Part shown: positions 11,237-29,830 of the stretch, piece after piece
Layout: each line of letters opens with the position of its first letter
Numbering within the stretch: position 1 is the stretch's first letter
From: Gemmatimonadaceae bacterium
Lineage (GTDB): Bacteria; Gemmatimonadota; Gemmatimonadetes; Gemmatimonadales; Gemmatimonadaceae
Length of the DNA stretch: 64,000 bases
Direction of reading: 5' to 3'
Assembly: GCA_051859245.1 (NCBI GenBank)
Contig: JBHYGA010000006.1
Span: 96,001-160,000 of the forward strand
The notes under the pieces: model-generated
Database searches by the model: none
The model's input: only the letters and a program-made list of their open reading frames with translations
What the model was told of the DNA's origin: nothing
Position numbers and translations under genes: made by a program

Positions 11237-11763
11237 GCGCTGGCTTCGACGGATCGAACGCCAGCGTCCCGCCCGACCCTTCCATGCTTGTGGCACCATC
11301 TGCTGTTGAAACGTCAGTTCCCGAGCGCGTTATCGAATCGCTCGTGCTTGGTGATACCGTCATTCCCGCGGAAAGTCTGTACACGTTTCCAGAAGGGATG
11401 CACGGATTCGAATCGCACCGAGAGTTTGCTCTGGTTCCGTGTGAACGCCCGAGTTTCTGGTGGTTGCAGGCGACGGACGAACCAGGCCTCGCATTTCTGC
11501 TGGTGGATCCGTTTGTGGCGCACGCCGGCTACGAGGTGGATCTCGGCGCGGGTGACGAGAAGTTTCTTGGACTCACGAACGCCTCCGATGCTCTGGTGCT
11601 CACGGTGGTGACCCTGCCTGCCGCGAAGGGACAGCCTGCCACGACCAACTTGCGCGGTCCGCTGGTGTTCAACACAGCGCAGCGTCGTGCACGGCAGATT
11701 GTGAGCAACGTGGAAAGCTACAGTCTCCACGCCACGGTAAACGTTACGCCACGCGATTCGTAG
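11233..11763 (+). CDS. fliW: Flagellar assembly factor FliW (CsrA antagonist)
   Basis: FPEGMHGFE, WLQ, LAFLLVDPF, TTNLRGPLVFN, ARQIV; ATGA-coupled to flgL. Confidence 0.92.
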   Translation: MSAGFDGSNASVPPDPSMLVAPSAVETSVPERVIESLVLGDTVIPAESLYTFPEGMHGFESHREFALVPCERPSFWWLQATDEPGLAFLLVDPFVAHAGYEVDLGAGDEKFLGLTNASDALVLTVVTLPAAKGQPATTNLRGPLVFNTAQRRARQIVSNVESYSLHATVNVTPRDS

Positions 11764-13018: not shown

Positions 13019-13024
13019 GGTTGG

Positions 13025-14206
13025 TCAGATGCTCTGAAAATGCTCGGCGCCAACACCAGGAACACACACCGCACGGTGTGATGCGGCCCAGCGTTCAATG
13101 CTGTCGACAACTTGCGGCACGTGTTCGTGAATGCCGTGCCAGAGTGGTAGTCGCACGAGTGAGTCTGACGCACGAAGCGTGCGTTCAAGCGAGCCGTGTG
13201 TTCGCGCGTAACGATGGCCGGCCGGCGTATTGTGCAGCGGCTGGTAGTGGAACGTGGCGCCGAATCCGTCTTGTGCGAGAGAACGAATCAATGCGTTGCG
13301 TTCGGCTGGCGAGTTGCAGCGCACAAAGTAGATGTGGCCGTTGAGTGTTGCCTCAGACGGAACGACGGGTCGCATGAGCACCTGGTCGTGCTCCAGCGGT
13401 TCGAGCAGGTCGTGGTATGCGTACCAGCTTGCACGCCGGGTTTCGGTCACCATCGCACATGCTTCAAGCTGCGCCAGCAGAAAGGCGGCCGTGAGCTCGT
13501 TCGGCAGATACGACGAGCCGAGGTCACGCCAGGTGTAGCGATCCACCTCGCCGCGCAAATACTGCGAACGGTCCGTGCCTTTCTCGCGCAGCAGTTCGGC
13601 GCGCGCCATCCACTGGGGGCGCGACAAAAACGCGCCGCCTTCGCCAGCACCAATGTTCTTGGTGGCGTGAAAGCTGATACACCCCATGTCTCCGACTGCA
13701 CCCAGCGGTACGCCGCGCCACTGCGCGCCAATGGCTTGCGCGGCATCTTCAACAAGTGCGAGTCCGAACTCTGCCGCAATCGCGCCCAATGCATCGAGAT
13801 CAGCCGCGATACCGGCGTAGTGCACCACAAAGATCGCCTTGGTGCGCGACGTAATGGCGGCCCGCACGCATTGAGGATCAATGTTCATGGTGCGATCATC
13901 GATGTCGACAAACACTGGTGTCGCACCACGCAATGCCACCGCATTGGCGGTAGACGTGAAGGTGAACGACGGCATGATCACTTCGTCACCGGGCGACAGG
14001 TCCAGCAGCAGCGCGCACAGCTCCAGCGCCGCCGTTCCGGAATGCACCAGCAACGCACCGCGCCCCGGGTGCGCCAGCTCCAGCCACGATCGCACACGTT
14101 TGCTAAACGGCCCGTCGCCCGACAAATGTCCGTGGGCCATCGCCTCGGCAACATACGCCGCGCCGAACGGCGACACGTAGGGTCGTGTGAATGGAACGCG
14201 AATCAT
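13025..14206 (-). CDS. rffA: dTDP-4-amino-4,6-dideoxyhexose transaminase (WecE/RffA family)
   Basis: LSGDGPFS, PSFTFTSTANA, VEDAAQA, SFHATKN, EKGTDRSQ, GSSYLPNEL, FHYQPLH. Confidence 0.88.
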   Translation of the reverse strand: MIRVPFTRPYVSPFGAAYVAEAMAHGHLSGDGPFSKRVRSWLELAHPGRGALLVHSGTAALELCALLLDLSPGDEVIMPSFTFTSTANAVALRGATPVFVDIDDRTMNIDPQCVRAAITSRTKAIFVVHYAGIAADLDALGAIAAEFGLALVEDAAQAIGAQWRGVPLGAVGDMGCISFHATKNIGAGEGGAFLSRPQWMARAELLREKGTDRSQYLRGEVDRYTWRDLGSSYLPNELTAAFLLAQLEACAMVTETRRASWYAYHDLLEPLEHDQVLMRPVVPSEATLNGHIYFVRCNSPAERNALIRSLAQDGFGATFHYQPLHNTPAGHRYARTHGSLERTLRASDSLVRLPLWHGIHEHVPQVVDSIERWAASHRAVCVPGVGAEHFQSI

Positions 14207-15141
14207 GCGGCGACACGTGGACGTGATGTAAGCGATGCATCAGCCACTGGCGCGACCATCGTATTCGTAAACGATTCCTCGCGCACGATCTGCCGCAAAT
14301 AGGCGCCGTAGGCCGAGCTTCCGTAACGAGCGGCAAGCCGCTCCAGTTGTTCGGTAGAGATATATCCCAGTCGAAACGCGATCTCTTCCGGGCAACTCAC
14401 CTTGAGGCCCTGCCGCTCTTCAATCGCGTGCACAAATGCGGAAGCGGCCATCAACGATTCGGGCGTGCCCGTGTCGAGCCACGCTGTGCCGCGACCCAGG
14501 CGGTTGAGACGCAGCGTTCCTTCGCGCAGGTAACGCGCGTTGAGGTCAGTGATTTCGAGCTCACAACGTGGGCTGGGCGTGAGTTCGCGTGCATAGCGTG
14601 GCGCGTTTCCGTCATAAAAGTACAGGCCGACCACAGCGAGCGATGAACGCGGTACGGCGGGCTTTTCCTCCAGCGAAAGCACCCGTCCTGCGGCGTCAAC
14701 TTCGGCCACGCCATACGCCGATGGATCACGCACCTGATAACCAAAAATCGTGGCGCCTTCGCGCTGCGACGCGGCCTCGCGCAGTCGTGGCTCAAGGCCG
14801 CTGCCGTACAACACATTGTCGCCGAGCGCGAGGCACACACCGCGATCGTCAACGTGATGTTCACCAATGCACAGCGCCTCCGCAATGCCGCGCGGTGCAT
14901 GCTGCACTGCGTACGTCAAGCTCAAACCCAGCGATGAGCCATCACCGAGCAGTTCGCAAAAGCGCGGCAGCTCAGACGGCGTACTGATAATGAGCACGTC
15001 GCGGATGCCAGCCAGCATCATCGTGGAGAGCGGATAGTAGATGAGCGGCTTGTCGTACACCGGCAGCAACTGCTTGCTCACTACCGCCGTGAGCGGATAC
15101 AATCGCGAGCCGGCGCCGCCGGCGAGCAAGATGCCCTTCAT
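14203..15141 (-). CDS. rfbA: Glucose-1-phosphate thymidylyltransferase
   Basis: MKGILLAGGAGSRLYPLT, SKQLLPVYDKP, LEEKP, ELEITD, AWLDTGT. Confidence 0.96.
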   Translation of the reverse strand: MKGILLAGGAGSRLYPLTAVVSKQLLPVYDKPLIYYPLSTMMLAGIRDVLIISTPSELPRFCELLGDGSSLGLSLTYAVQHAPRGIAEALCIGEHHVDDRGVCLALGDNVLYGSGLEPRLREAASQREGATIFGYQVRDPSAYGVAEVDAAGRVLSLEEKPAVPRSSLAVVGLYFYDGNAPRYARELTPSPRCELEITDLNARYLREGTLRLNRLGRGTAWLDTGTPESLMAASAFVHAIEERQGLKVSCPEEIAFRLGYISTEQLERLAARYGSSAYGAYLRQIVREESFTNTMVAPVADASLTSRPRVAA

Positions 15142-16214
15142 ACGCGCGCTCCAAGTCCGAGGCGCGATGCGTCGTACGCACCGCCAAGAATCGATTGCCA
15201 CCAGCTGGCATGCTCGAGATACCACCGCACTGTTTGCTCGAGACCGTGCTCCATTGACGTTCGCGGTGCCCAGCCCAGCTCACGCTCAATGCGCGAGGGG
15301 TCAAGCGCGTAGCGCGTGTCGTGTCCCGGTCGGTCGGTGACAAACGCAATGGCGGAGGCGTGCGATTGTCCATCCGCACGCGGCGACAAACGATCCAGTG
15401 CAACGCACAGCGAGTCAACAACACTGCGATTTGACCGAACTTCACGCGCGCCCACAACGTACGTGCGGCCAACCGCTCCTGCTGCAGCGATCCGACACAA
15501 CGCGTTCGCGTGATCTTCAACGAAGATCCAGTCGCGTTGCTGCAATCCGTTACCATAGATCGGCAGAGAATCGCCGCGAAGCGCGCGCACCATCAGATGC
15601 GGAACCAGCTTCTCGGGAAACTGCCAGGGGCCGTAGTTGTTGCCACAGTTCGAGATCAGCGTGGGCAAGCCGTAGGTGGCGTGCCACGCCCGCACCAGAT
15701 GATCCGACGCTGCTTTGCTGGCCGCATACGGCGACGACGGCGCGTAGGGTGTTGCTTCAGTGAAAAACTCGTCTGGTGCAGCGCAGCCGAACACTTCATC
15801 AGTTGAGCAATGCACGAACCTGAAGGTGTGCGCGTGCGGTTCCGGCCTTCCGCGCCAGTACCGCGTGCAGGCGTCGAGCAGTACCTGTGTGCCGACCACA
15901 TTCGTTTCGATAAACGGACGCGCCGAGTCAATCGAGCGATCCACGTGCGTTTCAGCCGCGAGATGAAATACGACCGTTGGTTGATGCGTTGCGAGCGTAT
16001 GCGCTACCATATCGGAATCGCAGATATCACCCACGACCAGTTCATGGCGCGTGTCGTGCGGCCACCCCTCGCGCGCCAGAGGATTAGCCGCGTACGTGAG
16101 TTTGTCGAACGACACGACGCGGTCGTATTGCTCGGCCAGCAGCGCGCGTACAAGTGCGCCGCCAATGAAGCCCGCTCCACCAGTGACCAATGCCACGCAG
16201 GGCGCATTAGTCAT
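15138..16214 (-). CDS. rfbB: dTDP-glucose 4,6-dehydratase
   Basis: VTGGAGFIG, DKLTYA, HLAAETHVDRSI, STDEV, YAASK, NNYGPWQFPEKL, DRPGHDTRY. Confidence 0.96.
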   Translation of the reverse strand: MTNAPCVALVTGGAGFIGGALVRALLAEQYDRVVSFDKLTYAANPLAREGWPHDTRHELVVGDICDSDMVAHTLATHQPTVVFHLAAETHVDRSIDSARPFIETNVVGTQVLLDACTRYWRGRPEPHAHTFRFVHCSTDEVFGCAAPDEFFTEATPYAPSSPYAASKAASDHLVRAWHATYGLPTLISNCGNNYGPWQFPEKLVPHLMVRALRGDSLPIYGNGLQQRDWIFVEDHANALCRIAAAGAVGRTYVVGAREVRSNRSVVDSLCVALDRLSPRADGQSHASAIAFVTDRPGHDTRYALDPSRIERELGWAPRTSMEHGLEQTVRWYLEHASWWQSILGGAYDASRLGLGARV

Positions 16215-17422
16215 GCTGCCACCTTGCTGAGCGCGAGTTGTTGCATGAGCTCCGCGAATACTGGTGCACGTTTGTGCCATCCGAGTGGCGCAACGTGCCG
16301 AGCCGCAGCCACACCACGACGCCGTGCGTCGGCGGTATCGCTGTATGCCAGCTCCAGTGCGTCCACGATTTCATCAACGTCTGCTGAGCCCCATCCATCA
16401 GTGCCACGCACGCCAGCATCCGCTGCGTTTACGGGGGACAACGAGGTAAGCGGATAGGCAAATGCTGGCTGCGCAAGTTCCTTGTGCGCCGTGTTGTGCG
16501 ATACGATGCAGGGTACACCGCTAGCCATGCACTCCAGCATGGCCGTTGACGGCGTTGCTTCCGCGCGATTGGGGAACAACCCCACATGCGCCTCGCGAAC
16601 GATGTCTGGCAATAAACCGTTGCTCACAAGGCCAACGTCCACCACGCTGTCGGCTGGAATGCCAAACTGTGAGAGCCACGGCGCAATCTGGAGCTGCCCT
16701 CCAACAAACGGTGGAAGCCCGAGCGAAGGCGTGGTTCCTGGAAAGGTGGAAAGCTGTTCGGGCCACGGATGTTGCCACGCGCAAACGAGCAACGCATCAG
16801 GATGACGCTGTCGAAACGCGCGCACTGCGTTGATGACCAGATCCTGCCCCTTTCGATAGTCCAATCGCCCTGCAGAGTAGATCACGAAACGACCGGCGAA
16901 CACGTTGCGCCGCGCGCCGGGATGGAAACGACGTGAATCCAGACCAGTGGCGAACTGCTGAACGTTTGTGAGCCCTGCTGACTGCAGCAGCTCGGTTTGC
17001 CACGGCGATGCCGCGAGCAGCGTCGATTCACGCTTGCCACGTTCCAGCGTTGCCGCGTCGATCACGGTGTCGGTAAGCGATGCAAAACCGACTGATCGGG
17101 CGAAGTCCCGATCCAGTGGATTGGGCAGCGCACGCAGCTCGTCGCCCAGAGTACGCACCAGGGTTGCCGGAACACGAAGCGACGTTGGCGTACGCAGTAA
17201 CCGATCCAATGCCACGGCACCATGCTGCATGAACTCGCGCAGTTTGGTAATCTCCGCGTCGCTGCAAAACTGAACCCATGAACTCGCCGCGAGCTTGGGT
17301 ACAACCTGTAGCTGCGAAGATTCGTGAAGCTGCAGTGACAGATGCAGCGAGCGCAACTCGGCGCTGGAGATCGTGCCCGCCGGGCAGTCAAGCATGATTT
17401 GCGGAACGGTCCTGGTTGTCAT
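16211..17422 (-). CDS. GT4-like glycosyltransferase
   Basis: GRLDYRKGQD, GLFPNRAE...MLECMASGVP; ATGA-coupled on both sides. Confidence 0.85.
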   Translation of the reverse strand: MTTRTVPQIMLDCPAGTISSAELRSLHLSLQLHESSQLQVVPKLAASSWVQFCSDAEITKLREFMQHGAVALDRLLRTPTSLRVPATLVRTLGDELRALPNPLDRDFARSVGFASLTDTVIDAATLERGKRESTLLAASPWQTELLQSAGLTNVQQFATGLDSRRFHPGARRNVFAGRFVIYSAGRLDYRKGQDLVINAVRAFRQRHPDALLVCAWQHPWPEQLSTFPGTTPSLGLPPFVGGQLQIAPWLSQFGIPADSVVDVGLVSNGLLPDIVREAHVGLFPNRAEATPSTAMLECMASGVPCIVSHNTAHKELAQPAFAYPLTSLSPVNAADAGVRGTDGWGSADVDEIVDALELAYSDTADARRRGVAAARHVAPLGWHKRAPVFAELMQQLALSKVAA

Positions 17423-18642
17423 GCCGCGATTCCCCGTGAACGTCGTGCCTGCGAGGCGAGCACCGCCTGTTCCACTATTGACAACCACTGCCGGCCTTCG
17501 TGCTCCCACGTGAATCGTGCGCTGACTTCGGCGGCGCGAGCACGGTAGGCATCAAGAGGTTGGCTCATAAATGCCTCAATCGCCAGCGCGAAGTCGCGCG
17601 GTGTGGCCAGATGCGCGTTTACGCCAACGCCGAGATCACCCACAAAACGACGAAGCTCAGGACCGTGGGACGCGAGGATCGGTAAACCAGCAGCCAGAAA
17701 CTCGTACAACTTGTTCGGCGACACCAACCACGTGTTCAGGTCAGAGTGCGGATACGGAATGATGCCGGCGTCTGCACCAACCGTCCAGCTGAGCAGTTCA
17801 GCGGCCGATTTCTCCGGCACGAAATGCACGCGAGTGCCGAGCAGTCCACGTTCGCGGGCGCGCTCCTTGAGCGCTTCGCCAACCGCTGAACTTTTGCCCA
17901 TGAACGCGAGGATCACATCTGGCGATTGCACCAGCGCCATGCCGTCAACGAGCTCTTCGAGGTTCCGGCTTGCAGCAAGGTTTCCCTGATACAGCAGCAC
18001 ACGCTGATGCGGTTGCGCACCGAGAAAGGCGCGCATGGGGCTGTCTTCGGCGCGCAGCACAGCGCTGTGTCGTCGGCTGGGACAGTTCAGGACCGTGTGC
18101 GGACGCGGACAGGCATAGCGCATGGCCATCAGGTCGGCGATGCTGTCGTTCACCGTAACGAGCGCGTCTGCGTACGGCACCAACGCCCGCTCCATGGATT
18201 CGAGCGTTGATTCCTGCGATTTCGTGAACGGCTGCGACGGGTAGTACTCGTGCGCGTCGTAGATGAGCGCGGCGTTGTGATGCTGCGCGGCAATGATGCC
18301 GGCTGCGAGCTGCGGCAAGTCGTTCGCGATCACAACTTCGGCGCGAAACGCAAGTGCAGCACTGAGCACACGTCTATGCCAGGCAAAGTGTTTGCCGGCC
18401 GCAATGACCGCGGCGTCGCCGTGATCAGTAGTTGGACCGGCCGGCACGTGCGGGCCCGTCACCCTGAAGATTGGCACATCCGGATAACTCGCTTCATCGG
18501 CCAGATCATCTGGCGCCGGACCGGCAATCACGAGTGTAGGCCAACCCGCTTCCGTCAGCAATCGTGCGCCGTCGAGAATACGACGATCAACCCGATCGTC
18601 GATGCAGAGCGTTACGATGCGATACTGCGCGCGGAGATCCAT
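17419..18642 (-). CDS. GT4-like glycosyltransferase
   Basis: IYDAHEYY, LYQGNL, ADAGIIPY, SPNKLYEFLAAGLP. Confidence 0.88.
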   Translation of the reverse strand: MDLRAQYRIVTLCIDDRVDRRILDGARLLTEAGWPTLVIAGPAPDDLADEASYPDVPIFRVTGPHVPAGPTTDHGDAAVIAAGKHFAWHRRVLSAALAFRAEVVIANDLPQLAAGIIAAQHHNAALIYDAHEYYPSQPFTKSQESTLESMERALVPYADALVTVNDSIADLMAMRYACPRPHTVLNCPSRRHSAVLRAEDSPMRAFLGAQPHQRVLLYQGNLAASRNLEELVDGMALVQSPDVILAFMGKSSAVGEALKERARERGLLGTRVHFVPEKSAAELLSWTVGADAGIIPYPHSDLNTWLVSPNKLYEFLAAGLPILASHGPELRRFVGDLGVGVNAHLATPRDFALAIEAFMSQPLDAYRARAAEVSARFTWEHEGRQWLSIVEQAVLASQARRSRGIAA

Positions 18643-18669
18643 GATGTGAAGCGGACGGAATATCGGGTG

Positions 18670-20571
18670 TCAGGCTGCGATCGCTGAGGACTCAGCATCA
18701 CGAAAGCGTCGGAGCCACCATTCAAAGCACAGGAACGACCAGATCACCAGACGATGATTCACGCGGCCCGACACGTGTTCATCGAGCAACGTGTGCACAA
18801 CCGAGGGTTCGATGAACTCGTACAGGCGGGCGTCGCGGCGTGAGAGCAGTGTGCGGATGTAGTCAATGCTTTGTCCGCGAAACCAACTCCCGTCAGGTGC
18901 TGAGAACCCCTGCTTCTTGCCGTTCGCATACGATGCGGGCACGTAGCGCGACAACGCTTTGCGCAGAATCAGCTTGCCGTCGCCCGTTTCGTTGAAATAC
19001 TTGTCCGCCTTCGCGCCGGGCGTGTTCTCGTCAAAGCGTACGATGCGATCCACATGCTTGAGCTTGTACTTGACTGGTACGCGCATCGCAAAGTCCACCA
19101 GATCGTTGTCAAGGAACGGGACACGCGTTTCCAGGCCGTGCGCCATAGACAGCTTGTCTTCGACCAGCAGCAATCCGGGAAGAAACGTGGAGAGCTCGAA
19201 GTACAACGAGTGGTTCACGTAGTCATCGGGCGACATCGCAAGAAACGAGCGCCGGCGCAGCACATCGCGAAAGGCTCGTTCAGGAGCTTCGTGATCCATC
19301 TGTGACGCGACAGATCCGCGAAAGAATCCGCTGCGGTGCTGATCCGGAATGAGGCGCTGCCAGTATTCGTAATACTTGGCGAGATATTGTGCCGCGTCAT
19401 CATTCTTGACGGCGCGATAGTAACGCCACGGATAGCCAGCAAAAATTTCGTCACCGCCGGTGCCTGCAAGCACCACCTTCACAAAACGTGAGGCGAGTCG
19501 CGACACATAGTAGTTCGGATAACTCTGCCCCACGCGCAGGTCTTCCAGGTGCCACACCAGCTCCGGCAGCACCCGTTCCATGTCGCCGGCCTTGAGCACG
19601 ACCTGATAGTGCTCCGTTTTGTACGCGTTCGACAGCATCTCGGCTTTCGCACGCTCGTCAAACCCGAGCTCCAGTCCCGACGCAGACGACAAATCAAAAC
19701 CGGCGGTGAAGCTTTTCACGTTCGGAAACCGACGCGCGGTCACGCAGGTAATCGCGCCTGAATCAATGCCCCCGCTCAGATACGTGCCCACTTCGACATC
19801 GGCGTCCATTTGCCGATTCACGGCCGCCTGAAACAGACGATCGAGTTCTTCCACGTACTCCGCCTCGCTCACACCCTGTTCCTGTCGGAACTCATAGTCC
19901 CACCACCGACGCACGGAGAACGTGTCGGGGCGACCCATGGTCAGCGTGATCGCGTGCGCACGCGGCAGCAGCTTCACGCCAGCAAAGAGCGTCTGGTCGG
20001 AGAAGACGTTCTGAAACGTGAAGTACTCGCCGAGTGCGGCGGCATTCACCCGAACCGACATGGTCGGATGTTGCAGCAGCGATTTGATCTCGGAGCCAAA
20101 CAACAGCGTGTCGCCGTCCCAGGAGTAGTAGAGCGGCTTCACGCCAAACCGGTCGCGCGCGAGCAGCACGCGCGACTCACGGGAGTCCCAGAGCGCAAAG
20201 GCGAACATTCCGTTGAACTTCTCAAGACATTTCACGCCCCACGCGCGATAGGCCTCAATCAGTACCTCGGTGTCGCTCTGCGTTCGAAAAGTTGACCCCA
20301 ACTTTTCGAGTTGCTGCCGGAGCTCCCGCCAGTTGTAAATCTCACCGTTGAAGGTGACGACGATGGTCCCGTCGGCCGATCGCATGGGCTGGTGGCCGGC
20401 GGGCGACAGGTCAACAATGGCCAATCGACGATGCCCAAAACCCACGCCAGCGTGCGACCACTGGCCCTCACCATCGGGTCCGCGGTGCCGCACGATATCG
20501 GTCATGGCGCGCAGCACGCCCGGCTGAACCGGGGCGCCGAACACCTGAACGACTCCGGCTATTCCGCACAT
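18670..20571 (-). CDS. asnB: Asparagine synthase-like glutamine amidotransferase (glycan-modifying, WbpS type)
   Basis: N-terminal MCGIAG, HRGPD, GHRRLAIVD, FNGEIYN, LSGGIDS, ETRVPFLD, KKQGF. Confidence 0.92.
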   Translation of the reverse strand: MCGIAGVVQVFGAPVQPGVLRAMTDIVRHRGPDGEGQWSHAGVGFGHRRLAIVDLSPAGHQPMRSADGTIVVTFNGEIYNWRELRQQLEKLGSTFRTQSDTEVLIEAYRAWGVKCLEKFNGMFAFALWDSRESRVLLARDRFGVKPLYYSWDGDTLLFGSEIKSLLQHPTMSVRVNAAALGEYFTFQNVFSDQTLFAGVKLLPRAHAITLTMGRPDTFSVRRWWDYEFRQEQGVSEAEYVEELDRLFQAAVNRQMDADVEVGTYLSGGIDSGAITCVTARRFPNVKSFTAGFDLSSASGLELGFDERAKAEMLSNAYKTEHYQVVLKAGDMERVLPELVWHLEDLRVGQSYPNYYVSRLASRFVKVVLAGTGGDEIFAGYPWRYYRAVKNDDAAQYLAKYYEYWQRLIPDQHRSGFFRGSVASQMDHEAPERAFRDVLRRRSFLAMSPDDYVNHSLYFELSTFLPGLLLVEDKLSMAHGLETRVPFLDNDLVDFAMRVPVKYKLKHVDRIVRFDENTPGAKADKYFNETGDGKLILRKALSRYVPASYANGKKQGFSAPDGSWFRGQSIDYIRTLLSRRDARLYEFIEPSVVHTLLDEHVSGRVNHRLVIWSFLCFEWWLRRFRDAESSAIAA

Positions 20572-20661
20572 GGAAGATCTGTGGTGACGCGAGCAGGCAT
20601 GCGACTGGCAGAAGGTGGACAACGCGGGCAGTTCTGGCCGCCCGTCACGGATCACTCTACA

Positions 20662-20677
20662 AGCACAAACTGTGCCG
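20662..20677 (-). promoter_or_regulatory. Sigma54-like -24/-12 promoter of the leftward glycan operon
   Basis: Minus strand CGGCACAGTTTGTGCT has GG-N10-GC and resembles TGGCACG-N4-TTGCW. Confidence 0.65.
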
Positions 20678-20730
20678 TTTGCAAGTTGATGTTATGCAAT
20701 GACTTATCGAACAAGTCGCGCAGCGGTATT

Positions 20731-20745
20731 CGGCAATACTTGCCG
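20731..20745. promoter_or_regulatory. Palindromic enhancer-like site 1 (CGGCAA-TAC-TTGCCG)
   Basis: Perfect 6-3-6 inverted repeat; the same motif recurs about 80 bp downstream. Confidence 0.65.
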
Positions 20746-20809
20746 GTTCTAGCGATTTTACAGGCAGAGATCGGCTGGGGAGCTTAACGCGCGGTACAGT
20801 GCTTTCTTG

Positions 20810-20828
20810 ATCGGCAATAGTTGCCGAT
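20810..20828. promoter_or_regulatory. Palindromic enhancer-like site 2 (ATCGGCAA-TAG-TTGCCGAT)
   Basis: Perfect 8-3-8 inverted repeat between the two divergent sigma54-like promoters. Confidence 0.68.
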
Positions 20829-20911
20829 GCTGCCCGCAGGATCGGCAAGAGCGTCGCAGGGCGCTCTCGTGTAAAATCATTTAAATCTTTGCTATTGAAC
20901 GACTTGGGCTT

Positions 20912-20927
20912 TGGCACGAATCGTGTA
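20912..20927 (+). promoter_or_regulatory. Sigma54-like promoter of the rightward glycan operon
   Basis: TGGCACG-AATC-GTGTA: perfect -24 element, variant -12 (GT instead of GC); preceded by an AT-rich IHF-like tract at about 20875-20905. Confidence 0.55.
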
Positions 20928-20974
20928 TTTATGAGTCGCGTTCGCGTGACGCATTCACCGCTTCGCACCTAGCC

Positions 20975-22852
20975 ATGACAAGTTCTGCCGCCTCAACCTC
21001 CGCGCCTGATCGCATTGACAGCGTCCAACTCACCGCGGACGGCGCGCCGCGTTTTGTTGTGCCGGCCCGTCCAGACCACCCGGATTGGGCGCAGGCCGCC
21101 GAGCTCGAGCCCGCGGGCGGCGTGGCGGCGGAAGTGCGCGTGTTCCTTGACGAGCAGATCAGCACCGGTGATCTGGTCATCGACCTCGCACCCGGACTTG
21201 GCTTCGTGGCGCTCAGCGCGGCCACCGCGCCGAACGGTGTGGCCACGGTCTTTGTGGCCGGCCTCGAAGAGTCGGACCTGACCGCGATGCAGGATGCAGC
21301 CGCGGACGCTGGGGCCTGGGTGGAGGGCATGTCGAGCGAGCCGTGGGAAGAAATCGCCGACGCCCTGGCCTCGCGGCTGGAGCCGGATGGTGGTGTGTTT
21401 GTGCATGCCGCGGCCTCGGATGTGGTGCTCGTATGCGATCGACTCAGCGCGCTCTGTGCGTCGGGCCGCCTGCTGGCGCTGTGCGTGAGTGATGTGATCG
21501 ATGATGCGCAGTGGCCCGCGCTTCAGGCCGCGCTGCAAAGCGCCAAACTTTCCGCCTGCCAGTTGGCGGAGCAGGATGGGGCCGTCGTGCTCGTTCCGGT
21601 GCATCACGCGCCCGCGTCGGCGCTGATCGCGGTGCCGGCCAACCTGTTTGAGGCGGCGCCAATTCATGATGATGTCAGCGCCGCGCCCAGCAACTATGAA
21701 GACGCGATCTTTTCTGTGCTGCCTGAAGCCGAGACCGGTCGCACGGCACTGCACGAGTCATGGGATGCCCTGCGCGACGGACTGGCACTGAGCGCGCCGC
21801 ACTCGCGAACCGGATACGGCGTGACGGGTGCACACCTGCTGCGCGCACTGCAAGCCCAAGGTGTTCCCGTCGCGTTCTTTCCGATGGGCGCGGTGGATCG
21901 TTCCATTACACACAACGCCGCACTTGATCAGGCGTTGCAGGCGCCCGCGGCGTTTCGTGCGGATGTGCCGAGTGTGCGCCTGGCACAGGCGTTTGATCTC
22001 GCACAGCACGCGGGGCGCGGACCACGCGTTGGCTTCACGATTTTTGAGACGGACGCATTCAGCGACAGCGAAATGCAGCATCTGCGTATGCAGGACGCCG
22101 TGATTGTCTGTACGCCGTGGGCGCGCGACGTGTGCTACGCAAACGGACTTGCTGATCGTCCGGTGTTTGTCGTGCCATTGGGTGTCGATCGCGACATCTA
22201 CAATGAACATGTGCAGCCAGTGCGCACGTGGCCGGAGACGGTCTTCCTGCAAGTGGGCAAGTTGGAGACACGCAAGGGCCAGCTGGAATTACTGCGTGCT
22301 TTTGAAGCGGCATTCACGCCGAGCGATGCTGTTCGTCTGGTGCTCGCCTGTCACAATCCATTTGTCAAAAAGGACGCGTTCGAGGCCGAACTCGCACCGT
22401 TCCGGACCTCGCCGATGGCGGCGCGCATCACGATTCTCGGCAGTGAGCTTGCGACGTCACGCGATGTGGCGGCGCTGATGGCGGCCGCTGATTGCGGCGT
22501 GTTCCCCGCGCGTGCCGAAGGATGGAATCTTGAAGCGCTCGAGATGCTGAGCATGGGCAAACCGGTCATTGCCACGGCAGCGACTGCGCACACCGCATTC
22601 ATGACTGAACACAATGCGCGTCTGATCACAATGAATGCAATGGAGCCCGCGCTTGGTGGTCGCATTGCGGGCCGCTGGCCGGCGTGGGGCGCGGCGCAGC
22701 ACGAACAGTTGGTGGAGCGACTGCGCGACGTGCATCGCGAACGTACGAGTGGATCGTTGCAGCGAAACAACGCAGGCATCGCCACGGCACAGGCGCACAG
22801 CTGGGATGCGAGTGCGTCCGCGCTGCTATCCGCGCTTTCTCACATCGCGTAA
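20975..22852 (+). CDS. GT4-like glycosyltransferase with N-terminal methyltransferase-like domain
   Basis: N-terminal GDLVIDLAPGLGFVAL (SAM motif I-like); C-terminal TGYG, GKLETRKGQ, FPARAEGWNLEALEMLSMGKP. Confidence 0.8.
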   Translation: MTSSAASTSAPDRIDSVQLTADGAPRFVVPARPDHPDWAQAAELEPAGGVAAEVRVFLDEQISTGDLVIDLAPGLGFVALSAATAPNGVATVFVAGLEESDLTAMQDAAADAGAWVEGMSSEPWEEIADALASRLEPDGGVFVHAAASDVVLVCDRLSALCASGRLLALCVSDVIDDAQWPALQAALQSAKLSACQLAEQDGAVVLVPVHHAPASALIAVPANLFEAAPIHDDVSAAPSNYEDAIFSVLPEAETGRTALHESWDALRDGLALSAPHSRTGYGVTGAHLLRALQAQGVPVAFFPMGAVDRSITHNAALDQALQAPAAFRADVPSVRLAQAFDLAQHAGRGPRVGFTIFETDAFSDSEMQHLRMQDAVIVCTPWARDVCYANGLADRPVFVVPLGVDRDIYNEHVQPVRTWPETVFLQVGKLETRKGQLELLRAFEAAFTPSDAVRLVLACHNPFVKKDAFEAELAPFRTSPMAARITILGSELATSRDVAALMAAADCGVFPARAEGWNLEALEMLSMGKPVIATAATAHTAFMTEHNARLITMNAMEPALGGRIAGRWPAWGAAQHEQLVERLRDVHRERTSGSLQRNNAGIATAQAHSWDASASALLSALSHIA

Positions 22853-22862
22853 CCTGCACGGG

Positions 22863-24005
22863 ATGATCGCGGCCGACATGCGATTGTTGACGATTGCCTT
22901 TGCGGGCACGGATCAAGGCGGTGTGCACCGAAAGCTCGGCGAGCAGGTGCGCGAGATTCGTTGCACCGTGCCGCATACACGGTCACTGGTGTTCGCCGAT
23001 ACGCGAGTAGCGGCAGCTTCTGCAGATGCTCCGTATGAGCTGATCGATCTGGCCGGTGGTGGATTTGATCCGGTCAGTCGCGCCCGCGCGTTTCAGATCT
23101 GTCGCGACGCGGTGGCCGAACACAAGCCGGATGTGGTGTATATGCGCTATCCGCTCTACGATGCGCATGTCGAACAGTTTGTGCGTGAAGCGCCGCCCGT
23201 GGTCTTTGAGATTCAAACAAAGTTTGATCTTGAAATGCCGGCCTCAGCCGGTGCAGTAGAACGCGAGTGGGCGACGCGCATTTTGCCGCTCAGTGCGGGT
23301 GTTGTGGCGGTTACGCCCGAGATTCTGGCGTACGAACGAGGCCGAGCCGGTTGGAATATTCCGGGGCACGTGATGTCAAACGGCGCCGATCCCGCAGCGA
23401 TTCCGTTCGCGTTACCAACACTCGCCAGTGATCGTGTTGATCTGTTGTGTGTGGCGTCGTTTTACCTGTGGCACGGCATTGATCGCGTGATCTGCGGAAT
23501 GGCCGCCGAACCTGATGTGCGCGATGTGCATCTCAATCTTGTGGGCGACGGACCTGCGCTCGCGCCGTTGCTCAAGCTGGCGCACGAGCTTGGAGTGGCT
23601 GATCGCGTGCACTCCGCGGGACTCAAATCTGCGAATGAACTTACGCCGTCGTTCGAGCGCGCACATCTGGCGCTCGGTGTGCTTGCACCACAGCGCAAAG
23701 GATTGACGGAGCTCTCGGCGCTCAAACATCGCGAGTATGTACTGCGTGGTGTTCCGTTCGTGACCGCGGGCCGGGACATTGACTTCGCGGGCAACGTGCC
23801 GTGGATGCGCACAGTCGACTCCGACGACTCCCCGATTTCGCCGCGCATGCTGCGCGCGTTCGCCATGTCGTGGACACACGAAAAGCGTCGCCGACAGATT
23901 CGCGCGTGGGGTGAAGCGAATGTGAGCTGGGCCGCCAAGATTCCGCCGCTGCTCGAGTTCCTCTCGGCGCGCCGGCGCGTGGCATCACTCGTAGACGCGG
24001 CCTGA
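22863..24005 (+). CDS. GT4-like glycosyltransferase
   Basis: PDVVYMRY, SNGAD, WHGIDRVI, LVGDG, ALKHREY. Start 22863 or 22878. Confidence 0.82.
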   Translation: MIAADMRLLTIAFAGTDQGGVHRKLGEQVREIRCTVPHTRSLVFADTRVAAASADAPYELIDLAGGGFDPVSRARAFQICRDAVAEHKPDVVYMRYPLYDAHVEQFVREAPPVVFEIQTKFDLEMPASAGAVEREWATRILPLSAGVVAVTPEILAYERGRAGWNIPGHVMSNGADPAAIPFALPTLASDRVDLLCVASFYLWHGIDRVICGMAAEPDVRDVHLNLVGDGPALAPLLKLAHELGVADRVHSAGLKSANELTPSFERAHLALGVLAPQRKGLTELSALKHREYVLRGVPFVTAGRDIDFAGNVPWMRTVDSDDSPISPRMLRAFAMSWTHEKRRRQIRAWGEANVSWAAKIPPLLEFLSARRRVASLVDAA

Positions 24006-24012
24006 GACGGAC

Positions 24013-25755
24013 ATGTGCGGAATCACCGGACTTCTTGACTTCACGCGTGGTGCCAACGAGAGCGCGATTGACGCGTTCACCGACGCGCTCGCGCACCGTG
24101 GACCTGATGGTCGCGGTACATGGTGCGCTGGTCCGATCGCCCTCGGGCACAGGCGCCTTGCGATTCTGGATCCGTCGCCGGCAGGTGCGTGTCCTATGGA
24201 GTACCACGCCCCCGATGGACACATCCTGCGTATCACGTTCAACGGTGAGGTCTACAATTTTCTTGAGTTGCGCGCCGAACTGCAGCGCGATGGCTACCCA
24301 TTTCGTACCGACACGGACACGGAAGTTGTCGTGGCCGCGTGGCATCGCTGGGGCGCCGCGTGTCAGACACGATTCAACGGCATGTGGGCGTTTGCTATCT
24401 GGAATGATGTCACGCAGACACTGGTGCTTTCGCGCGATCGATTTGGCGTGAAGCCGCTATATGTGTACGGACAGGGCACGATGATTGCTTTTGCGTCGGA
24501 GATCAAAGCTTTTCTGGCGCTGCCTGGTATCACCCGTCGTTTGAATGCAGAAGCCGCGTCGGCGTTCTTCACGAATCCCAGTGCCTATGATGGAATCAGT
24601 GCCGGCACTGCGCTTGATGGCGTCATGCGAGTGGCACCTGGACATTCGCTTACCATCAGCCCGAAAGGCACAGCCGGATTTGAACGGTGGTGGGACACGT
24701 CCGCGCATCTGCCGGAGGTGCCGACGCGCCATGAAGAGCAGGTCGCCCAGTTTCGCGAACTGTTTCTTGATGCCGTGCGCCTTCGCATGCGAAGCGATGT
24801 GGCGATTGGCACATCGCTGTCCGGTGGTCTCGATTCGAGCGCCGTTGCCTCAGCGATGGCAGAAGTTGCACGCGCCAGTAGCAGCGCCGAACGCACGCGA
24901 TGTGCAAGCGATTGGCAGCGCACATTCATTGCCACGTTTCCTGGTCATCAGGTGGACGAGCGTGTGTTCGCGGAAATGGTGGTGCAGCACACAGGCGCGT
25001 CGCCGCACTACTGGAGCTTTCATCCGGGTGCCGCACTTCGCGATTTGCCGGCCAGTGTGCTCGCGCTCGACGACCTGAGTGCCGCACCGGCGGTTCCGAT
25101 TCTGAATATCTATCGGCTCATGCGGACGCACGGCGTGGTCGTCACTCTCGATGGACACGGCGGCGACGAACTGCTCGCCGGTTATCCGTGGTATCGCGAC
25201 ATTCCGCTGGCGGACGTAAACGCCGCACTGGGCCGCGATTTTCACATCACGCACTTGCCGTCCATTCTGCGCAACTACGACGGTTGTTCGATGGCGAACG
25301 GTGTGGAGGTGCGCTCACCCTTCATGGATTGGCGCTTGGTCACGTTCGCCTCGGCGCTGCCCGCTCAAGCGAAGCTCTCGCCCACGTACACCAAGCAGAT
25401 TCTGCGCGATGCGCTGGTCGGCATCTTGCCTGAAGGCATTCGCACACGCGTAAGCAAGCTGGGCTTCGAATCACCCCTTGTTTCGTGGGCGAACGGAGCG
25501 CTCGGCCCGGTACTGCTCGCCGCGAGCAAGACGGATGCGTGGCGCGAAGCGCCGGCGTCGGCGCAGTCAGCCGCCGTGGCATCCATTGTCGCCGAACGAA
25601 CGCGCAGCCGCAATTTTACCGAGGCTGATCGTGTGGCGGTCGCATTCGCCTACCGCTTGCTGAACTTTGTGCTGTGGAGCGAACACTATCTTGGCGCGGG
25701 TGATCGCATCACCCGAATGCTCGGCGGTGCTGCGCCGTTGGCACGCGCTGGATAA
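24013..25755 (+). CDS. asnB: Second asparagine synthase-like glutamine amidotransferase
   Basis: MCGITG, HRGPDG, GHRRLAILD, FNGEVYN, LSGGLDSS, DGHGGDELLAGY, EVRSPFMD, KLGF. Confidence 0.9.
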   Translation: MCGITGLLDFTRGANESAIDAFTDALAHRGPDGRGTWCAGPIALGHRRLAILDPSPAGACPMEYHAPDGHILRITFNGEVYNFLELRAELQRDGYPFRTDTDTEVVVAAWHRWGAACQTRFNGMWAFAIWNDVTQTLVLSRDRFGVKPLYVYGQGTMIAFASEIKAFLALPGITRRLNAEAASAFFTNPSAYDGISAGTALDGVMRVAPGHSLTISPKGTAGFERWWDTSAHLPEVPTRHEEQVAQFRELFLDAVRLRMRSDVAIGTSLSGGLDSSAVASAMAEVARASSSAERTRCASDWQRTFIATFPGHQVDERVFAEMVVQHTGASPHYWSFHPGAALRDLPASVLALDDLSAAPAVPILNIYRLMRTHGVVVTLDGHGGDELLAGYPWYRDIPLADVNAALGRDFHITHLPSILRNYDGCSMANGVEVRSPFMDWRLVTFASALPAQAKLSPTYTKQILRDALVGILPEGIRTRVSKLGFESPLVSWANGALGPVLLAASKTDAWREAPASAQSAAVASIVAERTRSRNFTEADRVAVAFAYRLLNFVLWSEHYLGAGDRITRMLGGAAPLARAG

Positions 25756-25761
25756 CGGTTC

Positions 25762-27531
25762 GTGAACGCCTCGAGTCAGCATGCCGAAAGTGCGTCGCGC
25801 CTGTTCGTGGGCATTCTCACGCACAACGGATTGCATCACACAGTGCGTTGCCTCGATTCGTTGCGGGAGCACACACAGTCGCCGTGGCAAGCGCTCGTGC
25901 TCGACAACGCGTCGAGCGACGACACGCCCGCGTACTTGCGGCAGCTTGATGACGCGCGCATCACCGTGCACTGTGGCGACCAGAATCTCGGTGTAAGCGG
26001 CGGTCGCAACTGGTTGATCACGCAGCTGCTGCCGCAGATGCAGGACAATGACTGCATTGTGCTTCTCGACAACGATATCGAGGTCTTCGACGGCTGGGAT
26101 GCACCGTTTGTTGAAGCCTTCGCCGCACATCCGAAACTCGGCGTAGCGGGTCGTTGGGCATTTTCCATGCGCGTACACGACACCTGGCGCGACATTCTGG
26201 GTGAAGACAGCGCGACGTCCGGACCAGTGGACACGGTGCAGGGATGCTGCTTCTGGATTCGCGCCGCGACTGCTCGTGATGTTGGCGTGTTCGACGAAGC
26301 ACTCGGCGGATTCTGGCATGAAGACGACGACTACTGCATTCGTGCGCTCACTGCGGGATGGGACGTACGCCGCGTTGCGAGCGACGCGATTGTGCATCAC
26401 GAACACGGCTCGGGCGTGGCGCTACGTCCGGACAAACTCGTTGGTTCGTGGCGGAATCAGGCGTACCTCGCGAATAAATGGCGCTCCATGAACGCCATTG
26501 GGCTGCTCGGCGTACCGATTCGCCCGCTCACTGACGAGCTACAGCCAGTGTGCAACGCACTGTCGCAGCGCACGAAACGACCCATACTACGTACCGAGGT
26601 CAACTCGGCGATCAACAGTGCCGCGCTGCTGATGCACGCGACACTTGAGGCAGACCATGTCGCAGCGATAGCGACACCGCTCGCGCGCATGATGCTCAGT
26701 GATGCAACTGCAGGTGAAGGTGAAGTCGCTGAGAAGGCCAGAGCCGCACTGGCGAGCGTGACGAATACCGTCGCCGCACGCAGAGTCAGCGCTCCCGCCG
26801 GCGCGGCGTCCCGCGCGTTCAGCAGCGTGTGTACCCCCGAGAGTTGGGAAGACGCACGCTGGTCCGATTCGTTCACGCATGGATTTCGCAACGGAGCCGG
26901 TCTCGATTTTTCAACGCGCACTGAATCCATGTGGCGTGACGGGCAGTTGCTGCATGCACTGCGTGCAACCGGCGTACTGAAGCGCGACGCGCGCGTACTG
27001 TTTGTGGGTCAATCGTTTGAACCGCTGATCGCGGCACTGTCGTACCATGTGCGCGAGCTGGTCATTGCTGACCGCGAGCTGCTCAGCGATGCTCAAGTGA
27101 TCGGGCGTGCGCAACAGATGTTGGGGAACGCGCGGCTGACGTATGCAACCTGGCCGGCTAACCCTGCAGAACAGTTCGATGTGGTTGTTTGCGCCAACGC
27201 GTCACGCTATGCACGCGCGGGAGACTTTCCCGAACTGCTACGGGCACTCGCGAATCATACGCGGTCTGGTGCGCTGACTGCCGTTGGCGTCTCCGTGCGC
27301 GTGGCAGGGCCGGCCGACGGAACGTGGGTTGAGCTCGACACGCTCGCGGATGATCACACGTTGCAACAGTCAGGTCTTCGTCGCGTGGGCGGATTAAATG
27401 CCGATGTGAGCGACGAAGTGCTGCGCGCGGCTGTTCCTGATCGATTGCGGACAACGTTGCGGCCATCACTCGCGCGGGCGATCGGTGCGCACTGTGTCTC
27501 AATGGCAACGCTGGTCGCAAAGCGCGTTTAG
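25762..27531 (+). CDS. GT2 glycosyltransferase with C-terminal methyltransferase-like extension
   Basis: VLDNASSDDT, NLGVSGGRN, LLDND (DxD), GVFDE, EDDDY; the C-terminal ~200 aa has RVLFVG...FDVVVC. Confidence 0.82.
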   Translation: MNASSQHAESASRLFVGILTHNGLHHTVRCLDSLREHTQSPWQALVLDNASSDDTPAYLRQLDDARITVHCGDQNLGVSGGRNWLITQLLPQMQDNDCIVLLDNDIEVFDGWDAPFVEAFAAHPKLGVAGRWAFSMRVHDTWRDILGEDSATSGPVDTVQGCCFWIRAATARDVGVFDEALGGFWHEDDDYCIRALTAGWDVRRVASDAIVHHEHGSGVALRPDKLVGSWRNQAYLANKWRSMNAIGLLGVPIRPLTDELQPVCNALSQRTKRPILRTEVNSAINSAALLMHATLEADHVAAIATPLARMMLSDATAGEGEVAEKARAALASVTNTVAARRVSAPAGAASRAFSSVCTPESWEDARWSDSFTHGFRNGAGLDFSTRTESMWRDGQLLHALRATGVLKRDARVLFVGQSFEPLIAALSYHVRELVIADRELLSDAQVIGRAQQMLGNARLTYATWPANPAEQFDVVVCANASRYARAGDFPELLRALANHTRSGALTAVGVSVRVAGPADGTWVELDTLADDHTLQQSGLRRVGGLNADVSDEVLRAAVPDRLRTTLRPSLARAIGAHCVSMATLVAKRV

Positions 27532-28160: not shown

Positions 28161-29585
28161 TCAGCGGCGCGTGTCAAGACTGTGCGCTTGAATTCGCGTA
28201 CTGACCTGCTCCACCACCGAAGCCCAGTCACCACTCGTGGGCTGACGTATAAGTTCGAGCGTGGGGTACCAGACGCTTTGCGTACCACGCAATCCCCAGC
28301 GCCAATCGGGCACGTGCTGCAGCATGACCAGCGTACGCACGCCCATCGCGCCAGCCAGATGCGCGATGCCGGTATCAGTGGTCACTAACACATCAAGCTC
28401 GGCAAGTTGTGCGGCGGTATCGGCCCACTCTGATAGCGCGCCAACTGTGCGCACATGCGCGGGCAACGCCGAGACATCGGTGCCCTGTTGCAATGACAGC
28501 ACCGAAAGGTCCGGTACCTTAGCGAGTTGCTCGAGCAGCATCAACAACGCGTCCGAACTCAAGTCACGCGTAAATCGCCCGGGAAAGGCGGCGTTGCCAG
28601 ACCAGACAAGGCCGACGCGTCGGACAGCCCGGTCAACCTCCGTTGCAACAACGCGCGCTCGCAAATACGGTACGCGTGTTGCCTGCACATCGACATCGAG
28701 CTCAAGGCGATACGGCAGCGACAGCAGCGGCACGTGAAAATCCGTCTCCACACGTGAACCGCGTGCGACGGCATCGTAGCCGTTTGCCACGAACAACTCG
28801 ACCGCGTGCGGGTGACACTCCACCACGACTCGAGCCGCGCCGCGCTCGGCCAACAGGTGCACGAACCGCAGAAACTGAAACTGGTCTCCCACGCCCTGTT
28901 CTGCGGTCACCAGTATCGAGCAGCCGGCAAGCGCTTCACCGTGCCAGGGACGCGCGCTCGTGGCCGGAACAGGCAGCGGCCGGTTCTCAAATAGTGCCCA
29001 CCCGTGCGCCGAGATGCGGTCGATGAGCGACGTGTACGCTGCTTGCACTCGCGTGGGCGCATGTCCGGGTCGCACCTGCTCCGCCTGTTTCAACCACCGG
29101 CGCGCACCAACCAGGTCGCCGAGATCGTGTCGGACCTGCGCCGCGGTGAGCAAGAACGCCGCTTGCCTCGGCGCGAGTTGCGCAGCGCGCTGCGCGAGTG
29201 GCCAAGCTTCGGTCACACGACCCTGCGTACGAAGTGCGCCAGCAAGCGCCGACAGCGCGGCTGGATCCTTACCATGTGATTTCACCACGTGCTGCAGACA
29301 CATTGTCGCTTCAACCGGCGCCCCCGCGTCGAGCAGCGCGGTGCCAAGCGCGTACGCGGCGGCGCTGTCTTGCCAGTCACCCGACGCAAACGCGTCGAGC
29401 AGCACCGCGCGTCGGCTCACCCCATCGTCCCGCAACGTGTGCACGTTGGCCAGGGCAATCGCGATCGAGACATCGGATGGAGCGGCAAGTCGAGCGCGTT
29501 CAAATGCTGCGGCGGCCGCCGTTAGGTCCGACGCGGTCATTGCCGCCTCGCCCTCGAGCAGCGCCCGCACTAGCTCCGCGCTCAC
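28161..29585 (-). CDS. TPR-repeat protein fused to a GT9-like glycosyltransferase domain
   Basis: N-terminal Ala-rich TPR-like helices; WHGE...EQGVGDQFQFLRF, PLLSLP, VGLVWSG, TDTGIAHLAGAMG, DWRW, WYPTLELIRQ. Confidence 0.85.
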   Translation of the reverse strand: MSAELVRALLEGEAAMTASDLTAAAAAFERARLAAPSDVSIAIALANVHTLRDDGVSRRAVLLDAFASGDWQDSAAAYALGTALLDAGAPVEATMCLQHVVKSHGKDPAALSALAGALRTQGRVTEAWPLAQRAAQLAPRQAAFLLTAAQVRHDLGDLVGARRWLKQAEQVRPGHAPTRVQAAYTSLIDRISAHGWALFENRPLPVPATSARPWHGEALAGCSILVTAEQGVGDQFQFLRFVHLLAERGAARVVVECHPHAVELFVANGYDAVARGSRVETDFHVPLLSLPYRLELDVDVQATRVPYLRARVVATEVDRAVRRVGLVWSGNAAFPGRFTRDLSSDALLMLLEQLAKVPDLSVLSLQQGTDVSALPAHVRTVGALSEWADTAAQLAELDVLVTTDTGIAHLAGAMGVRTLVMLQHVPDWRWGLRGTQSVWYPTLELIRQPTSGDWASVVEQVSTRIQAHSLDTRR

Positions 29586-29724
29586 AAAACCCGTCCTTCT
29601 ATATGAAAGAGCGTAGCGTCATCGAAAAACGTGGCAAAATGCACGATCAACGCACGTTCAGACGCGCCGCGTAACGGTGGGTTCCCAGGCCGTGAGAGCG
29701 CCAAAACTTGTTGAATCAAAACGC

Positions 29725-29751
29725 TCAAGTTCCTCGCCGATGTGTCGATAG
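29725..29751 (+). promoter_or_regulatory. Sigma28-like promoter of fliC
   Basis: TCAAGTTC-N11-GTCGATAG versus TAAAGTTT-N11-GCCGATAA; an overlapping alternative CAAA-N15-GCCGATGT lies at 29717-29743. Confidence 0.72.
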
Positions 29752-29821: not shown

Positions 29822-29830
29822 ATAGTCACC

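Follow-up and report, generated by a model that had tools for sequence, protein, structure and literature searches.

A putative bidirectional sigma-54-dependent control region between two divergent operons of a flagellin-glycosylation island in Gemmatimonadota

In Caulobacter crescentus, the divergent sigma-54-dependent flagellar units of flaN-flbG reportedly carry repeated ftr elements for the activator FlbD and reportedly require integration host factor (IHF). In Vibrio cholerae and Pseudomonas, the response regulators FlrC and FleR are described as acting with sigma-54 on rod, hook and ring genes; the hexamer CGGCAA is reported as conserved at the P. putida promoters PflgB and PflgF (bioRxiv 10.1101/2021.08.29.457346), and a review places the Vibrio FlrC sites typically downstream of the start site, yet describes them as true enhancers. 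For Xanthomonas oryzae, the flagellin-glycosylation genes of the gigX island are described as controlled by sigma-54 (RpoN2) and the master regulator FleQ, above a sigma-28-driven flagellin, and the divergent orp1/orp2 genes of Desulfovibrio vulgaris, with their activator OrpR (PMC8359166), are described with two sigma-54 promoters and two functional IHF sites between them. Here we have analysed a stretch of 64,000 nucleotides (nt) from a Gemmatimonadaceae bacterium (GenBank assembly GCA_051859245.1, contig JBHYGA010000006.1, positions 96,001 to 160,000), hereafter the window, in which a gap of about 400 bases (20572-20974) separates two divergent genes of a Gemmatimonadota flagellar locus. 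From its sequence and that of its relatives, we consider it likely that both divergent operons of a flagellin-glycosylation island are controlled from this gap, which would act in both directions and depend on sigma-54.

The gap carries two outward-facing elements of the -24/-12 type. On the minus strand, the sigma-54-type promoter at 20662-20677 (AGCACAAACTGTGCCG, reverse complement CGGCACAGTTTGTGCT) reads CGGCAC-N5-GTGCT, with GG and GC at the correct spacing, from which a start at about 20651 is predicted, so that some 80 nt of leader would precede the ATG (20571) of an asparagine-synthase-type gene (MCGIAG...). Its plus-strand counterpart at 20912-20927 (TGGCACGAATCGTGTA) reads TGGCAC-N5-GTGTA, and the predicted start at about 20938 would leave a leader of about 37 nt to the first plus-strand gene, which starts at 20975 and encodes a GT4-type glycosyltransferase (GT) of 625 amino acids (aa), hereafter GT625. 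The motifs listed in an earlier reading of the same letters (the original prediction) were all located at their coordinates by a string check, but its GC at the plus-strand -12 position was mistaken: the arrangement is GG-N10-GT, with T replacing C. A scan for sigma-70-like promoters found none in 20400-21100, and an Rfam scan of 20300-21200 returned nothing above chance.

Between the two promoters lie two palindromes that are putative activator sites, namely A at 20731-20745 (CGGCAATACTTGCCG) and B at 20810-20828 (ATCGGCAATAGTTGCCGAT, core 20812-20826), followed by the plus-strand half-site C at 20842-20855 (TCGGCAAGAGCGTC), whose CGGCAA occupies 20843-20848. The sequence GATCGGCAA is repeated in the left half of B and in C, 31 nt apart, and C forms a 13-nt inverted repeat with the right half of B. 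The exact form CGGCAA-N3-TTGCCG occurs only twice in the 64 kb, both times in the control region, and none of 100 shuffled sequences contained any, whereas degenerate versions with at most two mismatches are at chance in the window (7 found vs 6.55 expected). The original prediction had named CGGCAA repeats as bound by Vibrio FlrC, which agrees with the wording "proposed FlrC binding motif" in the preprint cited above (bioRxiv 10.1101/2021.08.29.457346). A fourth site at about 20763-20777, which would have given a four-site mirror, was dropped, since its fit is limited to GGCA and the closest relative, L001, has not kept it.

An AT-rich tract separates the palindromes from each promoter, and here the earlier description of IHF-like tracts holds as to their positions but can be refined: they are symmetric dyads of 25 bp in strict register with the promoter, following the template TAAG-N2-GTTG-N5-CAAC-N2-CTTA. 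The tract beside the minus-strand promoter reads AAGTTGATGTTATGCAATGACTTA at 20683-20706, and the IHF-like dyad there (20682-20706, CAAGTTGATGTTATGCAATGACTTA, score 13/16) ends 4 nt before the -24 element; the dyad of the plus side (20882-20906, TAAATCTTTGCTATTGAACGACTTG, score 12/16) ends 5 nt before its own.

The two -24/-12 elements are not significant alone, since the window has about as many matches to the sigma-54 consensus (up to two mismatches allowed) as expected by chance (44 found vs 40.7 expected); it is the comparison with related loci, and hence their conservation, that makes them significant and convincing. For this comparison we have retrieved 80 loci, together with an alignment of 40 GT625 homologues. 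The comparison set consists of the window and L001-L039 (40 sources, 677,071 nt), and 41 unrelated loci (L040-L080, 654 kb, 54% G+C) serve as the negative-control set. The start of GT625 could be assigned in 34 sources; it is unassigned in L006 and L034, and the N-terminus is missing in L009, L014, L037 and L038. The GT625 homologues bear Gemmatimonas or Gemmatimonadaceae names, and the related loci are Gemmatimonadota contigs with a common frame of regulator, flgL, (fliW), a variable glycosylation island, TPR gene, flagellin and fliD. One contig, CAMDGV010000030.1 (L009), is labelled as an Akkermansia muciniphila bin although its GT625 match has 62% identity, like those of the Gemmatimonadota loci, and it is probably misbinned.

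Of the 34 loci whose GT625 start is assigned, 19 have a TGGCA(C/T)-N5-xTG element 16-105 nt upstream of it, and these 19 are all the loci in which the region before the gene is non-coding (19/19). It is absent from that interval in the other 15, where GT625 directly follows another gene: fliW in 12 of them (by tblastn), the TPR gene in L002 and L004, and a GT gene in L011. A mirror element on the other strand is also found in 12 of the 34 loci. Positions that were not part of the search pattern likewise fit the sigma-54 consensus, with a purine after GGCAC in 31/31 sites and A or T after the -12 position in 28/31. In the alignment of the window with L001, the conserved islands are both promoters, both palindromes, block C and the leaders, in an otherwise diverged spacer; the block GCACAAAnTGTGCCG of the minus-strand promoter is kept, and block C is identical while its flanks diverge. 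The GTG that both -12 elements of the window carry had been proposed as a possible lineage variant, but 6 of the 12 partner minus-strand promoters of the same lineage have the canonical TTGC, and 14 of the 19 GT625 promoters have the G three positions before -12, which marks it as belonging to the GT625 promoters and not to the lineage.

The elements also recur in combination. When composite promoters are defined without regard to the palindrome, by the sigma-54 pattern and a dyad score of at least 10, the 677 kb contain 37 of them, and 36 of these have a palindrome (at most one mismatch) within 300 nt upstream. The common plan is a CGGCA-N5-TGCCG palindrome, the 25-bp dyad, which stops 4-5 nt short of the -24 element, and TGGCAC-N5-xTGxx. 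In the 41 control loci, 42 hits to the sigma-54 pattern were obtained, none of them with a dyad, so that no composite was found there. The dyad template was set by eye from the scored promoters, which makes its scores somewhat circular; with it, a score of at least 10/16 is reached in 33 of 39 palindrome-bearing sigma-54 pattern hits, compared with 1 of 15 palindrome-free hits and with 187 of 20,000 random positions (0.94%). In the 34 promoters that reach this score, the distance from the 3′ end of the dyad to the -24 T is 5 nt in 23, 4 nt in 10 and 6 nt in one, and the palindrome lies about 55 nt further upstream, which places the dyad between palindrome and sigma-54 promoter.

The palindromes show a preferred spacing as well. 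Among 48 promoter-associated palindromes, the start lies at -99 to -102 from the -24 T in 22 cases and at -76/-77 in seven, and the remaining clusters are at -66 to -69 (four), -137 to -139 (four), -149 to -152 (five) and -181/-182 (two). Exact palindromes are strongly concentrated at these promoters: 22 of the 38 in the 677 kb fall within the 9.5 kb upstream of the 37 promoters, a density of 2.31 per kb as against 0.024 per kb elsewhere, or about 96-fold. The core that the relatives have kept is CGGCA-N5-TGCCG with an A/T-rich centre (over 37 unique sites, A or T occupies the middle position in 66 of the 74 counts obtained after symmetrising), and as judged from their sequences the two palindromes of the window are near-ideal versions of it. 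The prediction of two mirror-image sigma-54-type promoters flanking the palindromes, with an AT-rich element in between on each side, is supported by the comparison as far as sequence can tell, and the palindromes are both kept in relatives and enriched upstream of composite promoters.

All genes that follow the 37 promoters belong to the flagellar glycosylation island, and they represent at least seven identifiable families: 17 GT625 orthologues, four asparagine-synthase-like proteins, four NAD-dependent epimerases/dehydratases, three double-GT4 proteins (927-953 aa), two TPR proteins, one GT1-like protein and one nucleotidyltransferase, with five open reading frames (ORFs) without a Pfam family. 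A second count gives six such ORFs and 31 identifiable genes, each of them for sugar synthesis, a glycosyltransferase or a TPR protein. The composite was found only at glycosylation-island genes in the sequence covered, which excludes the rod and hook loci.

The flagellin gene itself appears to be under a different sigma factor. Read by eye, a sigma-28-like CTCAAGTTC-N11/12-CGAyA precedes flagellin in 18/18 upstream regions compared, while a strict sigma-28 pattern matched only 3 of the 18; upstream of flgL the sequence is TCAAG or TAAAG ... CCGAyAC, which is also sigma-28-like. In the window these promoters are found at 29724-29751 before flagellin (CTCAAGTTC ... GTCGATAG) and at 10224-10262 before flgL (CTCAAGATC ... 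GCCGACAC), and a FlgM-like ORF lies at 33972-34271. The conserved promoter and the FlgM-like gene are in keeping with the sigma-28-driven flagellin that had been proposed. The flagellin leader contains a hairpin, GAGGCA-CGGA-TGCCTC at 29788-29803, and a ribosome-binding region, CACGGAGGA at 29814-29822, both of which are kept, exactly or slightly changed, in 18/18 flagellin upstream regions compared. These elements look like CsrA binding sites and, together with the fliW gene at 11233-11763, therefore suggest a FliW-CsrA control of flagellin translation.

As to the activator, the most likely candidate is the NtrC-type response regulator encoded at 7822-9291 on the minus strand, which has a receiver with D52, Walker A and Walker B motifs, a GAFTGA sigma-54 contact loop and a C-terminal Fis-type helix-turn-helix (HTH), and which matches Sigma54_activat of Pfam at 1.6e-70. 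Its gene adjoins flgL in 23 related loci with 72-92% identity. A degenerate palindrome, GGGACATTCTTGCCG, is present upstream of the regulator gene at 9314-9328 and is possibly autoregulatory. In 18 related spacers between regulator and flgL, inspected by eye, 12 contain a palindrome with at most one mismatch (11 of the CGGCAAAWWTnGCCG type, with one mismatch, and two exact ones in L039), and sites like GGGACATTCTTGCCG occur in L015, L019, L020 and the window. This circumstantial evidence fits autoregulation and ties the motif to the regulator gene. The domains, the conservation in the locus and the palindrome-like sites beside the gene make this regulator a plausible binder of the palindromes, as the original prediction had implied. 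Exact CGGCA-N5-TGCCG palindromes are also found 35-100 nt past the stop codon of the regulator gene in six loci (L002 14111, L004 14346, L021 6841, L028 6747, L031 6795 and L036 1210), a dyad lies nearby in L027 and L031, and the window has a CGGCAA at 7570, inside the 493-nt gap after the gene. These palindromes could mark a further controlled promoter or be terminator hairpins.

Starting from what is observed, namely the genes present and the sequence elements with their conservation and fixed geometry, we infer the binding events, start sites, activator, bending protein and timing as follows. At both promoters (minus strand 20677-20662, plus strand 20912-20927), which face outwards, RNA polymerase with sigma-54 would wait in closed complexes. 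The activator, a response regulator of the NtrC family and most likely the product of 7822-9291, would be phosphorylated on D52. Its dimers would then occupy palindromes A and B, which are of the CGGCA-N5-TGCCG type, together with half-site C, and an ATPase ring would assemble. A DNA-bending protein, IHF-like or another dimeric protein, would bind the 25-bp dyad abutting each -24 element, and the bend would fold the roughly 75 bp in between so that the activator could touch sigma-54, whereupon ATP hydrolysis would open the promoter. The genes for glycan synthesis and transfer would in this way be turned on at the sigma-54/activator tier, with flagellin and flgL being read from their sigma-28-like promoters.

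Several observations weigh against such an interpretation. In the promoters themselves, the plus-strand element has T and not C at -12, C is found at this position in only 9 of the 19 GT625 promoters (T in five and A in five), and, as mentioned above, consensus matches in the window are at chance. The GT625 promoters of L015, L017 and L020 have no good dyad. Both the dyad template and the promoter pattern come from the very loci that were later scored, and as many of the promoters are orthologous, their counts do not represent independent events; judged by the background and control figures, however, the dyad effect is far larger than the bias from template circularity. The gap of 81 bp between A and B, about 7.7 helical turns, is ill-suited to one cooperative enhancer, and the sites lie upstream of the promoters here, unlike the typical Vibrio FlrC sites described in the review. 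With none of the named NCBIfam models does the candidate regulator reach the curated cut-off (AtoC with 438 and NtrC with 401 are the best; FlbD gives 360 and FlgR 320, each against a cut-off of 750), and in a comparison with PDB chains its match to the AAA+ domain of FlrC (246 bits) is no better than those to FleQ or NtrC-type chains. No rpoN or IHF/HU gene was seen in the 64-kb window, where small ORFs were not screened for HU/IHF. L015, L017 and L020 keep the sigma-54-type element and a divergent partner promoter, only 130-150 nt apart, and from their sequence this region appears to be a compact variant of the control region.

That the -24/-12-like elements have arisen by chance, with the operons being read from ordinary housekeeping promoters, would suit the chance-level matches and the missing C of the plus element, but deserves hardly any credence: the element is kept in every non-coding GT625 upstream region, the positions outside the search pattern agree with the consensus, the 654 kb of controls contain no composite promoter as compared with 37 in the related set, and the sigma-70 scan found no site of the alternative kind. 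Another reading concerns the enhancer. Two separate enhancers, with A serving the minus promoter only and B together with half-site C the plus promoter only, have to our judgement almost even chances. Measured from its start, palindrome A is 68 nt away from the minus -24 element and 181 nt away from the plus one, while B starts 100 nt before the plus -24 T, which is the preferred distance of the lineage, and 149 nt before the minus one, so that each is nearer to one promoter; half-site C starts 69 nt before the plus -24, and the GATCGGCAA repeat places B and C about three turns apart, whereas the A-B spacing is not a whole number of turns. The symmetric divergent pairs of L007 (palindromes at -138/-99 vs -139/-100) and L002 (-152/-101 vs -153/-102) likewise offer one palindrome at about -100 to each promoter. 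In the symmetric pair of L005, however, both promoters are 99 nt away from a single palindrome, L010 and L033 likewise show only one between two promoters, and enhancers work over varied distances by looping, which makes one enhancer shared by both promoters, as put forward in the original prediction, plausible as well.

The nature of the dyads poses a similar choice. The E. coli IHF consensus is asymmetric, while the dyad is near-perfect, and its register of 4-6 nt to the -24 T in all 34 promoters is tighter than expected of a mere bend site. Matches to the IHF consensus WATCAANNNNTTR reach 8/9 on the plus side and 7/9 on the minus side of the window, but at a threshold of at least 7/9 they are only moderately more frequent in promoters (28/38) than in shuffled copies (699/1900). 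It is therefore a serious possibility, if somewhat short of an even one, that the dyads are not IHF sites but operators of a dedicated dimeric protein, either a homodimeric HU/IHF-like protein or a lineage-specific promoter-gating regulator. Yet each dyad half contains the IHF core CAA-N4-TTR, the dyad is placed between enhancer and promoter as at IHF-assisted sigma-54 promoters such as those described for the orp operons, and no candidate for a dedicated dyad-binding protein has been identified. The architecture could also be correct and the palindromes be bound by another protein, be it a sigma-54 activator encoded elsewhere or a repressor that is no activator at all. The regulator at 7822-9291 is a predicted binder of the palindromes, it exceeds the cut-off of no named flagellar subfamily, and in L022 a paralogous sigma-54 activator gene (8756-9460, 50% identity over the AAA+ part) with an HTH-like end stops directly upstream of the GT625 promoter region. 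We regard binding by another protein as rather unlikely, since the regulator is kept in the same locus in 23 related loci, palindrome-like sites accompany its gene both in the window and in 15 of the 18 spacers compared, a sigma-54 promoter requires an activator, and a constant spacing of about 100 nt, with a bend-type site in between, is how activator sites are classically arranged. Control of both operons by sigma-54 and the regulator at 7822-9291 is the interpretation we prefer.

The genes around the control region agree with the predicted glycosylation function of both flanking operons. On the minus strand, the sugar operon at 11744-20571 comprises, by Pfam, an asparagine-synthase-like gene, two GT4 glycosyltransferases, a dTDP-glucose dehydratase-like gene, a nucleotidyltransferase, a DegT aminotransferase and a further GT; its organization as a single operon is inferred from the tight same-strand spacing. 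The plus-strand sugar operon at 20975-27531, assigned by Pfam and synteny, encodes GT625, a 456-aa weak GT1-like protein, a second asparagine-synthase-like protein and a GT2 glycosyltransferase (Pfam). It is followed by the TPR gene on the minus strand (28161-29585), by flagellin (29831-30586, plus strand) and, from 30669 onwards on the plus strand, by fliD, fliS, the FlgM-like gene, cheY, a cheZ-like gene and cheA. On the other side, flgL (10326-11236) and fliW are both on the plus strand, and a methyltransferase gene lies on the minus strand at 9406-10269. The latter is flanked on both sides by a duplicated stretch of about 50 nt in which TGTGACGTGCAACC and GCCGAnnnTGnAATAGACG are found (9345-9395 and 10243-10285), and the gap between regulator and flgL measures only about 95-215 nt in the relatives; from the sequence, it looks as if the methyltransferase gene had been inserted into this spacer with duplication of the flgL promoter region. 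Further away, the minus-strand ORF at 3413-6427 (1004 aa) combines phosphotransferase (APH), peptidase M23 and class-III aminotransferase domains, an unusual fusion.

Our literature search on flagellar and sigma-54 regulation in Gemmatimonadetes and Gemmatimonas listed no paper on flagellar regulation in the phylum, and flagellar gene control in Gemmatimonadota appears to be undescribed. The predicted system is of a well-known kind, in a phylum for which we have found no earlier description; it is noteworthy for its rigid spacing, for the symmetry of the dyad beside the promoter and for a half-site like that of FlrC. Together with the consensus activator site and the candidate regulator, the strict spacing rule and the dyad provide a testable regulon model. 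For the many uncultured members of this group whose genomes are available, the composite motif could serve to locate sigma-54 regulons and glycosylation islands. As CGGCAA recurs, one may also ask for how long flagellar NtrC-type activators have had their DNA specificity. A far-reaching and quite speculative version, to which we would assign only a small probability, is that flagellin glycosylation in Gemmatimonadota has a sigma-54 regulon of its own, whose promoters follow a rigid module of three parts: a palindrome 100 nt before the -24 T, a symmetric dyad in a 4-5 nt register and a -12 position tolerating T or A. The dyad would be read by a homodimeric architectural or gating protein and not by classical IHF, and the activator would be of the FlrC/FleR type, with a CGGCAA specificity that has outlasted the separation of the phyla while glycan genes took the place of rod and hook genes as its targets.

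Compared with the systems described at the beginning, the locus shares some traits with each. To FlrC and FleR it is linked by the CGGCAA present in A, B and C and by the proposed pairing of a response regulator with sigma-54, and it differs from them in the putative targets, which are glycosylation genes here. With flaN-flbG of Caulobacter it would share, as that system is described, divergent sigma-54 units in a flagellar locus and repeated activator elements, in another phylum and with glycosylation genes in place of hook and filament targets; FlbD, moreover, is described as working with FliX and not with a kinase, whereas the regulator here keeps the receiver Asp. The orp1/orp2 region of D. 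vulgaris resembles the layout proposed here in having two divergent sigma-54 promoters with two sites between them, which are functional IHF sites there and IHF-like dyads here, although its genes are unrelated, its activator is OrpR, and IHF is described there as a heterodimer while the putative bend sites here are symmetric dyads. A parallel in target genes is the gigX island of X. oryzae, in which sigma-54 and an activator are likewise described as controlling flagellin-glycosylation genes above a sigma-28-driven flagellin; the activator there is the master regulator FleQ and the phylum is another one, so that the arrangement proposed here would extend the sigma-54 control of flagellin glycosylation known from Xanthomonas to a distant phylum.

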